Origin: Yuukianura sp. NJ FZ-2021
Taxonomy: Eukaryota
Assembly: GCA_046563655.1 (NCBI GenBank)
Contig: CM102285.1
Location: forward strand, 6,820,001-6,884,000
Reading direction: 5' to 3'
Length of the DNA: 64,000 bases
The stretch's first letter is position 1. Every line of letters begins with the position of its first letter. This document shows, one piece after another, positions 45,117 to 62,859 of this stretch. Both the position numbers and the translations under genes were made by a program. The notes beneath the pieces are model-generated. The model was not told the origin of the DNA. It saw only the letters and a program-made list of their open reading frames with translations, and did not search any database.

Positions 45117-46648
45117 TTACTCATCGTCAGAATCATTTTCAGATTGGAACTCTTCGTCTTTTACCTTTGCAATGCCTCTATTAGAAGTAGGGATGGATTG
45201 TGGATTTCTAAAGTAATTATCCGGGTCGTACTTCTGTTTGACTCGAATCAAACGCTGAAGATTGTTACCGTAGTATCTCTGAAGGTAGTTTCTCATGTCT
45301 GCATCCGGGTAATTTTGATACGTTTCTCTACTTCCAAAAATTTCTCCTCCGAAACTAAAAAATCGGTTGAGCCAACGCATTGCAGTACGATTCGCCGCAG
45401 CGTCTGACACCAAGGTGTAATCAACAGTTGCCCGAGCATTGTATCCGTTTTGGCTTCGATGAACAAAAGCAGTTTGACTTTGCTCTACATCATTAACTGC
45501 ACCACCATAACCTTCGAAGCGACAACGAATGGATGGAGGTTGCTCTCTCAATAGGCTGTACAATCGACTGATTTCGTTTCTTGAAAGAAGTTTTGGAACG
45601 AAAAATGACTTTGTTTTGATATGCTCCGGTTTAGATGAACCGTGTTTTAAATTTTCGAAGTCTGACGGTTTTTCCAATACAATTCCCGGCTTCAAGGTTC
45701 CCCCAAAATTTTTTGCTGTGTACAATAGAAATTCCGGGTAATTGTACGTGGCTACTGTTCGATTCCTGGTTCTAGGAAATCTTGCTTCGAGTCTTCGAAA
45801 TACTTCACTTGTTCCAGTGGAATCAAAAAAGTGAATTTTAATAGCACGGTTTCGAAGTCTAAAATTTGGTGTAATTCTTCTAGGAGCGCCAACATGAAAT
45901 TCTTGCCAAGCGTGAAAAACTTCTTGAAAGTTGCGTAGGTCGTAGAATAAAACGCCTTCAAATATTTGTTGCGGGGTGTTCACCGTTCTGAAAATGAATC
46001 GTGTTATTATTCCAAAACTCGCTCCACCTCCACCACGACGCGCCCAGTACAAATCAGAATTCGTAGAGTTGTTGACCGTAATCAGTGTGCCGGCGGCAGT
46101 GACAATGTTAAGTTCGTCGATGAAATCAGTGGTAAGTCCAAATTGTCGAGTGAAGTAACCGTGACCTCCTCCCGGTGCAAGTCCACCGATACCCACCATG
46201 GTACACAAACCAATAGGAAAAAAGCGTTGACCCGAGCTCCATAGTTTCCAAGCCATTGGCCCCAGAATTGTGCCTCCACCTACCGAAGCTCTGTCATTTC
46301 TCAACGAAACGGCTGACATTTTGCGCAAGTCAACCACGACGGAATTTTCGTCGCCATAGGCGAATTTTTCATACTGGTGACCTCCTGACCTCGCTACAAC
46401 TCTGACGTTATGCCTTCGTCCACAAATGACAACAGATATCACGTCTCTTTCCCTCGAAGGAAGAACGTAGGCTCGCGGTCGTATTTGTGGAGGATTAAGA
46501 CGAAACTGGTAATTCAAGTCCGAGTAGGCTCTTGAACTTCCGCGCTGCACGATGTCACTCTGTCTGAATCTGCGTTCTGTAATGCATGATCTGAAGGCAC
46601 TGAAATCCTGACAACAAGACAATGCAATAGTCAGAAACAATGCAATAT
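45117..46648 (-). CDS. FAD-linked oxidase, berberine-bridge-enzyme-like (FAD_binding_4 + BBE), intronless body
   Basis: Motifs are ARSGGHQYE (flavinylation His), GLCTMVGIGGLAPGGGHG, DLYWARRGGGGASFGIIT and the C-terminal YQNYPD...YYGNNLQRLIRVKQKYDPDNYF. The N-terminus IALFLTIALSCC is hydrophobic. The probable start ATG at 47518 lies beyond an insertion. Confidence 0.9.
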
Positions 46649-47486
46649 CCCTAGTAACCAAAGTTGGTACCGAGTACGTACGCCGCTTGTCTCAATGTTT
46701 TAGATGCGACGAAGCAAAGAACGTAATTGGTACAATCGGGGAACGCATCTGGTACGACGCGTTGACCACCAAATTCCCTGGCTGGTTACGTACCAGCTCC
46801 GTCCTTAGCGAGACCTTCGTGGGACACCCATAGGACGATCTTGCTGCGCGAAGGAAAAAACTCATTCTCCTCCCATTGATTCGAACTCTCTGCCTCCCTA
46901 CTCATACCTTATTTGTTACCTGCCTCGCACTCCACTTGGCCACTTGGTCTTGTTTTGTATTGAAGGTTTCATTGACGATATTGTTTGAAATTATCAATTG
47001 ATTATTAAAGTTCGGAATCCGAAACTTTTTTCAAATTTTGTTTTTGAAAAACAGTTTTCACAATAACTATTATTATTTTCACCATCCTAATGGACGGTTG
47101 ATCATTACGGCTTTCCAGTAATGATCAATTCCTACCAAGCGTTAATTATTAATGCCTGAGTAATTAATGATTGATAGGAATTCGTACCGCAATCATTGTT
47201 CATAAAGTTGAAAATAAAACTGTTCATGGAAACTATCAGCTTCGTAGAAAAATGTACATTCCATATGGTTTCAGATGCTAAATTAAACTTTGGAAAATTT
47301 TCTTTAAAACATATGTTTTTCCGGGATGATAATGGGACGTACCACGAACGCCTCGTACGTTGGAGAAAGTTCTGCGCAAAACAGTACGTAAGCGGTACGC
47401 ACCACGACCGTCCTTAAAATATGAGACGATATCGCTCCGTTTTACACCTTTGGCGTACGTACCATCGCGGTAGCTGGTTACTAGGG
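46649..47486. mobile_element. 838-bp TIR element inserted in the 5' end of the BBE-like gene
   Basis: TIR CCCTAGTAACCA (46649-46660) and TGGTTACTAGGG (47475-47486), flanked by AT on both sides, with subterminal GTACG repeats. Confidence 0.8.
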
Positions 47487-59514: not shown

Positions 59515-61745
59515 GTTTATAAGAGGGGGCTCACTACCTATTGATTAGGATAGTGAGGCCCACGCTGAACATGCGCTATATGGCATATTTCAGTCTCTCC
59601 TAGAAAAACAGCGTTATTCTATCGGGGTATCCCTCTGCTTTCCCCGATTTAACCTCCCTGACCTCTTTGTAAAGTCAAGTAGGGAGGGCAGAGGGATGTC
59701 TGCAAGGTCTGTTCTACAGTGCGGGAAAAAATTATAGGGACAAGCATATTTTTGACGATAACTCTACTAATTGGCAATCTAAGTCAGCCAAAAAATTATT
59801 TAATACGGGAATGTACGATATAAAACTATGGTGAAAGTTTCATTAAGATACGTTTTTCCGTTTTCGAATTAAGTCAAAAAAACCGAAGTGAAAGTTGAAA
59901 AACCTGGAAAAAATTATAAGGACACGACATGTTTTCGGTCCAAATAATTCAGCACTACAAATTCAATTGTTGTAGTAGGCTGCCCAAACTTTCAGGATCA
60001 TTTTTTAAGTGTTTGTGGCAAATTTTAAGCTATTTTTCGGAAAAATCCGAAAAAACCGAAAATACCCGAATTCGGGTATTTTCGGTTTTTTCGGATTTTT
60101 GAACGGGATTCTTTGAGGGGACTTATAGGGAGCCTGTGGTGAAAATTTGAGCAAAATCCGCACGCTACTTCCCGAGATTCGGCACTTCAAAATTCGGACA
60201 ACATTTTTTTGAAAAATGGTGCATCTAACTAATGTTAAAATATTTTAAAACTTAATCACGTTTTTTAAAACTGGCCAATCTCGAGAACTAGCGTGCCGAT
60301 TTTGCTCAAATTTTTACCACATGCTCCATATAAGTCCCCTCAAAGAATCCCGTTCAAAAATCTGAAAAAACCGAAAATACCCGAATTCGGGTATCTTCGG
60401 TTTTTTCGGATTTTTCTGAAAAATTGCTTAAAATTTGCCCCAAACACTTAAAAAATGATCCTGAAAATTTGGATAATTTACTACAACAAATGAATTTGTA
60501 GTGCTGAATTGTTTGGACCGAAAAAGTGCCGTGTCCTTATAATTTTTTCCAGGTTTTTCAACTTTCACTTCGGTTTTTTTGAGGTAATTCAAAAACGGGT
60601 GAATGAATCTTAATGAAATTTTCACCATAGTTTTATATTGTACATTCACGTATTATATAATTTTTTGGCTTATTTAGGTTAACAATTCGTGGAGTTATCT
60701 TCAAAAATATGCTTGTCCCTATAATTTTTTCCAGTACTGTATCTAGGAATGCTTTCCCAAACAGAACAAGCCTAGTATGGGCGTGCCCCTCGCATCCCAA
60801 CAGAAAATGGTCTCTACTTTGCTCCTCCTTCCCTCAGACACTGCAGGTTGGGGAGTCCGCAAGTCCTATTCTGTATAGGTGCTTTGCTAGCAAGCAATGT
60901 CCGGTCACAATCATAGCCAGTAGACGCAAAGATCCTCGGCTGAGGTTTAGACAGAACTTTGCCGTTTTTTTGCTGAAACTCGTCAGCAGCGTTTTTGCGT
61001 CTTTGCAGTCCTGGCTGTTTCTCCACTTTTCCTCGTGGCACTGCTTCCCCCATCTGCTGATAGCAGTGTGTACAGTGCTCACAGGTACAGGTAGAGTAGG
61101 CGCAGGACCAACAAATGTATTTCCGTTGCCTCCTTAGCTAACCCTTCGACAGTCTCGTTCCCTTCGTACCCGCTATGTGCTGGTATCCAGTGTACTGTGA
61201 CTTGCCTGGTGTTGGCCAATGTGTTGAGCGCGTCAAAGCATTCTCTAACCATGCCAGCTTGTGGCCAAGGGCTAATTAGAGAGTCTAGAACGCTCTTTGA
61301 GTCTACGTAAATGTGCGCGGGGAAGACATTCCTTTGGAGTAATAGTCTTCTCGCTGCACATAAAAGAGCAAAAACCTCCGCCTGGGGCACGCTAGGGTGC
61401 TTTCCCAGGGGTAGTTTGTACCCTTTTGCTGGTCCATCCGGTGGTGCGATGTAAAACGCTGCACCAGATTTCCCGTCAATACGTGAACCGTCAGTGTAGC
61501 AGTTTATCGCATCACTAGGAGGACCACGTTTTGCCCGTTCCTTCCACTGCTTCCTCGAGATCACTTCTATCTCAAAGTATATCTTAGTCGGCAGTATGTT
61601 ATATCTCTCGCAAGGAAATCCCATTTCTGGGATATCCCATGCGAATGATTCGCAGACTTGTGCGTGAGTTTGGGTCTTCAGAAAGTTGACCCTAGCGGGA
61701 ATCCAGTCACTAGAGATTCTAAGCCGGTGCATGGTCCGGAGTTAC
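59515..61745 (-). mobile_element. 5'-truncated non-LTR retrotransposon (I/LOA-like) with RNase H and C-terminal Zn-knuckle
   Basis: The RNase H reads CYTDGSR...QAEVFAL...IYVDSKS...VHWIPAHSGYEGNE and the knuckle reads TGHCLLAKHLYRIGLADSPTC. An (AT)n tract lies at ~59500-59514, and the element is split by a MITE. Confidence 0.85.
59717..60739. mobile_element. ~1-kb palindromic Tc1/mariner-type MITE nested in the LINE
   Basis: TA|CAGTGCGGGAAAAAATTATAGGGACAAGCATATTTTTGA...TCAAAAATATGCTTGTCCCTATAATTTTTTCCAGTACTG|TA. The arms extend for several hundred bp. Confidence 0.88.
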
Positions 61746-62859
61746 GATTTATAAAGGAGAATAATATTGTAAGTTTCTTACAAACTCGTCTGAGATAGGC
61801 TTTTTCTTGGGTTTAATACACTCCTTCATTCCGTCACTCCATGGCAATACGACGACCAACAGGCCAAGAGCAAGCACGAAATTCATTGTTGAATTGGTTC
61901 CTTTCCGGCTGCAGGTCTTTGCTTTCGAAGAAATAAATAAGACTGATGCTAAACTACAAATTCGAGCCCGTACATAAAGCCCGTTCAAACAATAAACAAT
62001 GGAGAAGCGGAATTGAACAAGGCTAAATTTATCAAGGACTTAAGGAAATTTTTCGGAAATGCGTCAATTAAAGTAACAATTGGCACGAGCTAAATTCAAC
62101 AAACAACTCTACCGCCATATTGGAATAAGGGAATATTGTCCAATGTTCTGCTACGTGGATTCGCTTTTTGGCATAATTTCTAGAAAAAAAAACGAAATCA
62201 AGGATTTTCCATTGTTTGAAGTCTTAACGATGATTGAAAATTGCTGTTATTGTTCTTATTAAACTTAGTGACGCATTTAAATACATAACTGGACGTAACG
62301 TCTTAAAATAGGGGAGAACGTTGGAAACCGAATAGATGTGACTAGACCAGTGGTCAGTCGCATCGAGTAATGCAAGGTCTGGTTTTTGGCCTCCTCCAGT
62401 TAGGTTGTTTAGGTTAGGTGCCAGTGGTGTTGTCGCGGCGGGAGAAGAGAAAATGAAAGACAAAGTTGAAACAATTGGAAACCAAAGTTGAAGAATTGAA
62501 ATCCAATTGAAACTTCATTAGTACAACGAAAAGAAAATTTTCAGTTTTTAAACTAATTCTCTATTTAAATGTTTCATCCAGAATTTTAATTTAAGTCTAA
62601 ATTGAAATTAAATTCATAGGGTTTGCAGCGCGTTGCAGATTTCTAAACTTCTGCGGGGCGTTTTGTATTTAGAATTTATTCAAAAATTTTACTTTTCTCA
62701 CTGCTCTCCATTTGCCTTAAACAGCTTATATATCAAAAATATTTTTAAATTTTGAACAGTTGAAAGTTGTTGGGTACAAAGTTTGTTTTGTCAAATTGTG
62801 TAGAAAAATTTTCTTAAAGTTTTTGTTTATCGCTTTAAATTTTCGATGTATTGTTCCAG

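Follow-up and report, generated by a model that had tools for sequence, protein, structure and literature searches.

We analysed a window of 64,000 nucleotides (nt) from the arthropod Yuukianura sp. NJ FZ-2021 (assembly GCA_046563655.1, contig CM102285.1, positions 6,820,001 to 6,884,000 of the forward strand; all coordinates below are those of the window), in which genes for a BBE-like oxidase linked to flavin adenine dinucleotide (FAD; - strand), a cytochrome P450 (+ strand) and a terpene synthase (+ strand) span 12.6 kb. A first-pass annotation had placed these three genes within about 12.6 kb of each other, which the Pfam matches and coordinates confirm, and had proposed that they form a terpenoid biosynthetic gene cluster. 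As a working unit this cluster is not supported, because the P450 is dead, an insertion breaks up the signal peptide of the oxidase, a receptor-like gene and transposons intervene, and the oxidase has oligosaccharide oxidases as its closest solved relatives, and not enzymes of terpenoid chemistry. Probably, the locus is instead a lone, apparently functional synthase of a known family in a transposon-rich, fast-turnover arthropod segment, where it lies beside decaying members of other expanded families. The caveat attached to the annotation, namely a decaying cluster or the chance adjacency of expanded families, describes the locus better than a working cluster does. Among the three enzyme genes, the synthase alone is clearly intact, and nowhere do two or more intact pathway genes adjoin, which is the arrangement by which we would recognize a cluster.

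Gene inventory and base composition

Stop-to-stop open reading frames (ORFs) were listed for the region of 44-64 kb, and Pfam families were matched at E ≤ 0.01 in 7 of the 14 ORFs scanned. When the whole 64 kb were searched by tblastn with these proteins and eight relatives, synthase, oxidase and P450 were each found in single copy, and a scan of the window against Rfam returned no RNA family. The stretch is animal DNA with an overall GC content of about 39%. Synthase and oxidase, with a GC content of 0.42-0.44 and a GC content at third codon positions (GC3) of 0.38-0.43, resemble the flanking animal genes, and this host-like composition indicates that both have long been part of the genome and do not stem from contamination. 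Gene orientations are mixed, and between the enzyme genes lie the receptor-like gene and transposon fragments.

The terpene synthase gene and its predicted product

The synthase gene was modelled as follows.

56425..56470, + strand: predicted exon 1 (ATG, 15 codons and 1 nt), translated as MLVDEALTFDFLAEK
56471..56609, + strand: predicted intron of 139 nt, GT..AG, phase 1, read from the sequence
56610..57694, + strand: exon 2, with the Pfam Terpene_syn_C_2 match and the stop codon at 57692-57694

The long synthase ORF contains no ATG before residue 70, although relatives conserve that N-terminal stretch, and because this conserved region lies in exon 2 without a preceding ATG, we infer a start exon further upstream. 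The donor of the predicted exon 1 (AAG|GTAAAT) allows an in-phase join to TTTTCGTTAG|CT at 56610, and the resulting frame is open over 360 codons. Its GC of 0.42 and GC3 of 0.43 compare with a GC3 of 0.39-0.52 in the flanking genes. Predicted intron, animal neighbours and host-like composition all mark the synthase as a nuclear animal gene.

The ORF 56561-57694 (+) matched Terpene_syn_C_2 (PF19086) with an E-value of 2.9e-09. A word-indexed homology search with the synthase returned no homologue. In an exhaustive search of 1.84 billion representatives, 58 homologues were obtained at E ≤ 1e-3, the best of them with 31-37% identity, and no relative above 37% identity was present among the representatives searched. 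The closest solved relatives by sequence are bacterial, with 10-epi-cubebol synthase at 5.4e-07. An AlphaFold2 model built from a 23-row alignment (predicted local distance difference test, pLDDT, 93.2; predicted template modelling score, pTM, 0.91) has the all-alpha fold of terpene cyclases, and when this model was compared with the PDB by Foldseek, 277 matches at E ≤ 0.001 were obtained, with bacterial sesquiterpene synthases at the top (template modelling score, TM, 0.71/0.80-0.85). The best structural matches are 1-epi-cubenol synthase (E 1.5e-10, TM 0.71/0.80) and 10-epi-cubebol synthase. Pfam match, predicted fold and structural neighbours are thus all in agreement with the microbial-type terpene synthase of the first-pass annotation.

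Both metal-binding motifs are recognizable. The Asp-rich motif is DETLE at residue 114, in which Glu replaces the second Asp of DDxx(D/E); among the 44 of the 58 relatives that cover this position, 39 have DD and 3 have DE, and the exchange of Asp for Glu appears to be conservative. The second motif, of the NSE/DTE type, reads NDLLGLKKE (residues 263-271); ND is found in 47 of the 50 relatives covering it, and N263 and D264 are invariant across the alignment of relatives. The roles of the diphosphate-sensor Arg and of the C-terminal R-Y pair are described in the literature on bacterial synthases. In the synthase, the Arg of the sensor column and the C-terminal R350 are conserved, and the Tyr of the R-Y pair is a His, as it also is in the near relatives P0121, P0123 and P0124.

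For a tree, the window synthase was combined with 33 hits of 290-480 residues (34 rows; 25 of the 58 hits were dropped for length). It fell into a clade of 27 rows (Shimodaira-Hasegawa-like approximate likelihood ratio test, SH-aLRT, 99) with the eukaryote-like composition of AT-rich genomes, and the other seven rows are mostly of bacteria-like composition. Synthase peptide motifs were not found in the one text supplement searched for each of PMC13638087 and PMC11665903. We conclude that the gene is an apparently intact, long-resident gene for a microbial-type class I enzyme and a divergent member of a known arthropod family.

The model also contains an N-terminal beta-hairpin (strands 13-22 and 26-34 of the exon 2 translation; window 56612-56720) with a pLDDT of about 95. 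This hairpin is kept in relatives of eukaryote-like composition and is missing in P0163, P0171 and P0177, which have bacterial-looking N-termini.

The P450 remnant

49792..51521, + strand: pseudogene of a CYP3-clan cytochrome P450, recognized by pieces of the Pfam p450 profile

Pfam p450 was matched on the ORFs 50206-50481, 50672-51025 and 51312-51521 (+). Profile positions 66-133 lie on 50206-50478 (frame 1), 256-346 on 50675-50970 (frame 2), 376-404 on 51158-51244 (frame 2) and 405-448 on 51336-51518 (frame 0). Successive pieces of the gene occupy frames 1, 0, 2, 1, 2 and 0, and no continuous frame of about 500 codons was found. Since the three junctions at about 50470, 50690 and 50968 overlap or abut and leave no room for an intron, these frame changes are not explained by introns; at the final two junctions, by contrast, the pieces are joined by clean introns of the GT-AG type. 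For profile positions 134-255 there is an 80-residue piece that falls short by about 40 of 122 positions, and this piece (50457-50696) had no match in Pfam or the PDB. On visual inspection alone, the N-terminal part of the gene lacks an ATG, contains a TAA at 50008-50010 and shows an extra frame change at about 50095. The lesions thus amount to at least three frameshifts, about 40 lost profile positions and an absent start codon.

Assembly error as the source of the frameshifts was considered and rejected. Six intact ORFs, 10,968 nt in all, contain 204 homopolymer runs of at least 4 nt and not a single frameshift, so the lesions of the P450 are taken to be real. The gene is therefore a multi-lesion pseudogene that is long dead, and the description of the P450 as broken in the first-pass annotation is accurate: its pieces are spread over three frames, and some of the profile is lost.

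Some hallmarks are still legible. The heme motif is split by an intron (PFG / IGSRSCIA), the ExxR motif is kept as ETLR, and the I-helix reads FSGVTT, without an acidic residue. A word-indexed homology search with one P450 exon found nothing. For the piece from I-helix to K-helix the closest solved relative is CYP3A4 (1.1e-11), which supports an assignment to the CYP3 clan; together with the Pfam p450 match, this upholds the P450 family given earlier to the level of that clan.

The BBE-like oxidase and its insertion

45117..46646, - strand: main frame of the BBE-like FAD-linked oxidase by Pfam, beginning within the signal peptide, stop codon at 45117-45119
46647..47488, strand not assigned: insertion of 842 bp with terminal inverted repeats in the signal-peptide coding region
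47489..47518, - strand: initial 10 codons of the oxidase, cut off from the main frame, with the ATG at 47518-47516, translated as MAVRHFRFIA

The oxidase ORF 45117-46691 (-) matched FAD_binding_4 (5.9e-23) and BBE (1.7e-17), the two domains on which its earlier identification as a BBE-like FAD oxidase can stand. Its frame is open over 508 codons, with a GC of 0.437 and a GC3 of 0.377, and the signal peptide is split after codon 10. The main ORF contains no ATG before residue 124. That a point mutation within the main ORF had removed the start codon was considered and set aside, as a signal peptide split by a transposon fits better.

The ends of the insertion form a perfect inverted repeat of 14 nt (46647-46660 / 47475-47488), next to which lies a second common block of 11 nt. 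On the far side the oxidase frame continues at 46646 with the hydrophobic core of a signal peptide, followed by the mature N-terminus, and when the two parts are rejoined, the signal-peptide region preceding the D measures 23 residues, compared with 24 in the relative P0001. The element has no second copy within the 64-kb window. The 5' insertion noted in the first-pass annotation is thus, judged by its inverted repeats, an 842-bp transposon-like element that lies where the signal peptide is encoded.

The oxidase aligns end to end with P0001, its closest relative, at 70% identity, and its His (in RSGGHQYE) and Cys (in GLCTMVGIGG) fall on conserved columns; presumably, these are the residues of bicovalent FAD attachment. 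The closest solved relatives are PpBBE-like 1 (2.6e-50), which we take to be a cellobiose-oxidizing enzyme, and chitooligosaccharide oxidase (2e-47), followed by plant BBE-like enzymes (a BBE-domain protein at 8.3e-43) and the THCA, CBDA and CBCA synthases. The relatives of the oxidase thus provide no link to terpenoids. At its C-terminus (window 45120-45180), the oxidase continues past the conserved PQSIP end with some 20 residues that form an acidic tail, and P0001 is without this tail.

A tree of 65 rows was built from the window oxidase, 34 top hits and the oxidase ORFs of the 30 best-scoring bacterial loci; rows of fewer than 400 residues were dropped, with the exception of P0056. The window oxidase pairs with P0001 (SH-aLRT 100) within a clade of eight rows (SH-aLRT 96) that includes a protein of the trombidid mite Leptotrombidium deliense and lies apart from Actinomycetota and Acaulospora, on long branches. 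In none of the 80 bacterial loci that contain a relative of the oxidase (1.52 Mb in all) did a synthase of the same family as the one in the window lie within 10 kb, a result that speaks only against a joint transfer of synthase and oxidase. A P450 was not detected near the bacterial oxidase relatives either, a weak negative since the queries were short fragments from the window. Homologues, structure matches and the oxidase tree bear out the part of the first-pass annotation that concerned foreign origin, in that the synthase and oxidase families have a microbial-type ancestry.

Readings of the adjacency

If, as we think probable, the segment contains a lone functional synthase, the enzyme would be cytosolic and, from what is known of the family, would bind a prenyl diphosphate via Mg2+ held by D-E-x-x-E and N-D-x-x-G-x-x-x-E. 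It would then ionize this substrate and cyclize it to a terpene hydrocarbon or alcohol, and its closest solved folds are those of sesquiterpene synthases. The neighbours would most likely not act on the product. The BBE-like flavoprotein would be a secreted oxidase from a separately acquired family, for which sugars are as likely substrates as terpenoids, and the receptor-like and lipocalin-like genes would belong to other locally duplicating families. Adjacency would then mean that young gene families specific to the lineage share a segment with transposons, and not that a pathway was selected for.

Several observations weigh against this reading. Under a uniform model the triple adjacency would be rare, since each copy of a family has a chance of roughly 2 x 12 kb / 221.7 Mb = 1.1e-4 to fall within 12 kb of a given synthase, an illustrative figure for which the genome size of Folsomia candida (221.7 Mb) was used and into which copy numbers of the source genome do not enter. 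Synthase and oxidase are both of foreign-derived families, and a cyclase with an oxidase is classic cluster logic. No target-site duplication was seen at the 842-bp insertion, and splicing at an in-phase GT..AG pair (47498...46651) could in principle remove the element from the oxidase. Finally, the frame of the oxidase has stayed open throughout, which implies either a recent insertion or a gene that remains in use.

A possible account of the oxidase, which is compatible with the lone-synthase reading and to which we give somewhat less than even weight, is that it acts, or once acted, as a secreted oligosaccharide oxidase of horizontal origin that serves feeding or H2O2-based defence and is unconnected to the synthase. 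Its top solved relatives, PpBBE-like 1 and chitooligosaccharide oxidase, argue for this, as does the tree, which groups it with six proteins and the trombidid-mite protein away from Actinomycetota and Acaulospora. The account is also in line with the available parts of PMC5490193 and of the Archegozetes preprint, where an enrichment for the breakdown of carbohydrates and lignocellulose is reported among the foreign genes of soil arthropods. However, the E-values of the BBE-like subfamilies are close (2.6e-50 versus 8.3e-43 for the plant BBE-domain protein), sequence does not reveal the substrate, and the supporting clade in the tree consists of long branches.

It is unlikely that the three genes are a relic cluster, that is, a former synthase-P450-oxidase pathway in decay of which the synthase alone is still under selection. 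Such a history would account for three enzyme classes of terpenoid clusters within 12.6 kb and for an adjacency that is improbable under the illustrative uniform null, and the unequal damage to two of the three genes would fit a stepwise decay. However, the P450 has many lesions and the oxidase a single one that looks recent, so that function was not lost together; in addition, orientations are mixed, the receptor-like gene lies between the enzyme genes, and the relatives of the oxidase have no link to terpenes.

We consider it improbable that synthase and oxidase survive as a two-gene module, in which the transposon is spliced as an intron and the secreted oxidase tailors the synthase product. 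The splice would join donor AG|GTTTAT (47499/47498) to acceptor CTAG|G (46651/46650) in phase 2, and this in-phase GT..AG removal keeps an N-terminus like that of a signal peptide. The open frame of the oxidase, its retained FAD-anchoring His and Cys and the presence among its solved relatives of THCA, CBDA and CBCA synthases, which act on prenylated or terpenoid substrates, are consistent with such a module. However, the donor GTTTAT is weaker than all the others read in the window, as it lacks an A at +3, whereas the other introns have GTAAAT (three times), GTATGT, GTAAGA (twice) and GTAGAC; the intron would measure 848 nt as against 69-139 nt elsewhere here; the oxidase is a secretory protein, whereas a signal peptide is absent from the synthase; and the nearest solved relatives of the oxidase are sugar oxidases. 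We would give equally little credence to the fuller scenario, in which synthase and oxidase are the surviving core of a first arthropod terpenoid cluster, the transposon is a new intron or a polymorphic insertion, and a synthase product oxidized or cyclized by the secreted flavoprotein serves as a defence compound or pheromone that is possibly carried by the neighbouring lipocalin-like protein.

Microbial contamination or a chimeric assembly that placed microbial genes beside animal genes is very hard to credit, since, although most other members of the two enzyme families are microbial, both the synthase and the oxidase gene have the GC and GC3 of the flanking animal genes, unlike those of the GC-rich actinomycetes, the synthase has a predicted spliceosomal intron, eukaryotic transposons lie in and around the genes, and animal genes stand on either side on a single contig.

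Neighbouring genes

52961..55136, - strand: candidate divergent ionotropic-receptor-like gene in four ORF pieces (ESM Atlas lead)
52236..52472, - strand: incomplete second copy of exon 1 of the receptor-like gene (tblastn, 50% identity to 54879-55136)
58879..59374, - strand: lipocalin-like exons 59374-59215 and 59120-58879 with a predicted intron of 94 nt (Atlas lead)
61782..61886, - strand: signal-peptide-like exon with a GTAAGA donor, a possible exon 1 of the lipocalin-like gene, read from the sequence

The first-pass annotation had put a receptor-like gene between the enzymes and a possible lipocalin after the synthase. For the former, the location stands, and ESM Atlas places its ORFs closest to arthropod Lig_chan clusters (0.92, 183 shared; Lig_chan in 17-35% of cluster members), but no Pfam match was obtained for these ORFs even at E ≤ 1. 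A GT-AG intron of 69 nt is predicted at 54370-54302, and the junction at about 53545-53590 can be bridged only by a weak intron or by a frameshift. The gene is a lead only, a candidate unrelated to terpene chemistry. Its 5' exon and the region upstream are tandemly duplicated (52162-52939 versus 54832-55591; DNA identity 72-81%), the downstream copy being a fragment, and the DNA flanking the exon duplicate (52639-52939) is 81% identical to 55304-55591.

Similarly, the possible lipocalin keeps its Atlas lead, as the exon in ORF 58879-59130 lies closest to clusters with Lipocalin in 21-38% of members (0.92, 176 shared), but a Pfam lipocalin match was absent even at E ≤ 1. The signal-peptide-like exon joins the lipocalin-like exons in frame only by way of a frame change in the A5 run at 59374-59378.

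Repeats, transposons and other features

48048..48779, strand not assigned: element of 732 bp resembling a miniature inverted-repeat transposable element, with inverted ends of 60 nt (85% complementary), between oxidase and P450
55608..56010, strand not assigned: copy of a dispersed repeat, 415-817 bp ahead of the synthase start codon, with further copies of 72-84% identity elsewhere
58084..58506, - strand: copia-type Pol fragment (Pfam Pol_BBD 1.2e-15)
60834..61741, - strand: retrotransposon fragment, RNase H and C-terminal region (Pfam RNase_H 2e-11, RVT_3 1.6e-4)

Transposon debris surrounds most genes, and the segment is transposon-rich with a fast turnover. Repeats or transposons lie in the oxidase, in the spacer between oxidase and P450, on both sides of the synthase and within the putative lipocalin gene. 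The RNase H domain of the retroelement fragment is encoded by the ORF 61079-61741.

The oxidase-P450 spacer (47901-49351) and the stretch 39329-40219, which stops about 90 bp before the 3' end of a zinc-finger gene, have four blocks in common at 82-97% identity, and the spacer copy is broken by the 732-bp element. The dispersed repeat that precedes the synthase, about 400 bp long, occurs also at 3281-3849, 6060-6597 and 7951-8370, near a Helitron-like ORF at 6685-7185 (Helitron_like_N 2.1e-10). Between the lipocalin-like exons and the retroelement, a direct repeat of 60 nt (60041-60100 / 60356-60415; 97% identity) lies in mirrored ORFs.

Further away, the region 12557-26816 (-) contains very long ORFs of up to 992 codons that resemble one giant gene and are mostly without Pfam match. 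Two of its ORF regions have SecA-type domains, SecA_DEAD (9e-08; 17821-19548) and P-loop_SecA (6.9e-07) with Helicase_C (16010-16846), which are unusual in an animal gene. At 923-2220 (-), overlapping ORFs of 346-355 codons encode a tandemly repeated peptide unit of about 13 residues, in which F, H, Q, L, P, M and K are abundant and for which no Pfam match was obtained.

Comparison with known systems and significance

Canonical terpene synthases have been reported from trombidid mites (PMC6275457) and from Acariformes, Collembola and Sciaridae (PMC11665903, where tandem synthase copies are mentioned), and in springtails 277 synthase genes were counted in 21 of 26 genomes, 55% of them with introns (PMC13638087). 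Like these arthropod enzymes, the window synthase is a single alpha-domain class I protein, encoded by an animal nuclear gene with an intron (predicted here) and host-like composition; its similarity to bacterial synthases is remote, at about 20% identity, and its family is small and of patchy distribution. The window synthase differs from them by the Glu at the second Asp of its Asp-rich motif and by the lack of any relative above 37% identity.

For the idea of a cluster, the nearest animal parallel would be the terpene gene clusters of octocorals, which Scesa and colleagues and Burkhardt and colleagues are said to have described in 2022. There, the tailoring genes are reportedly intact, conserved across species and partly shown to work. 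The window shares with these clusters an animal genome and a microbial-type terpene cyclase near oxidative enzymes, but here the P450 is a pseudogene, the oxidase is interrupted, and unrelated genes and transposons intervene. In Folsomia candida, two terpene-related antiSMASH clusters were counted, their content being undescribed in the available part of that source (PMC5490193); as in the window, terpene-related and foreign-derived genes are co-located in a soil arthropod. This count is the nearest precedent in the portions of the literature that were available, where we found neither an arthropod terpene synthase with linked tailoring enzymes nor a synthase-P450-BBE cluster.

The oxidase resembles known BBE-like flavoproteins of the VAO group (PpBBE-like 1, chitooligosaccharide oxidase, plant BBE-like enzymes and THCA synthase) in its FAD_binding_4 and BBE domains, its His/Cys pair, its signal peptide and its length of about 500 residues. 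It differs from them in being encoded by an animal, in being split by a transposon and in its 20-residue acidic tail, which is missing from P0001.

Microbial-type synthases of arthropods have been recognized recently (2018-2026), and the enzymes downstream of them are unaddressed in the available parts of that literature. If a linkage of synthase and oxidase were conserved, it would offer a direct handle on terpenoid tailoring in arthropods, and arthropods would become a second animal lineage with terpene clusters, after octocorals. For now, the main contribution of the locus is one more, divergent member of the synthase family; with its foreign-derived genes in transposon-rich, decaying surroundings, it also warns against calling clusters from co-location alone.

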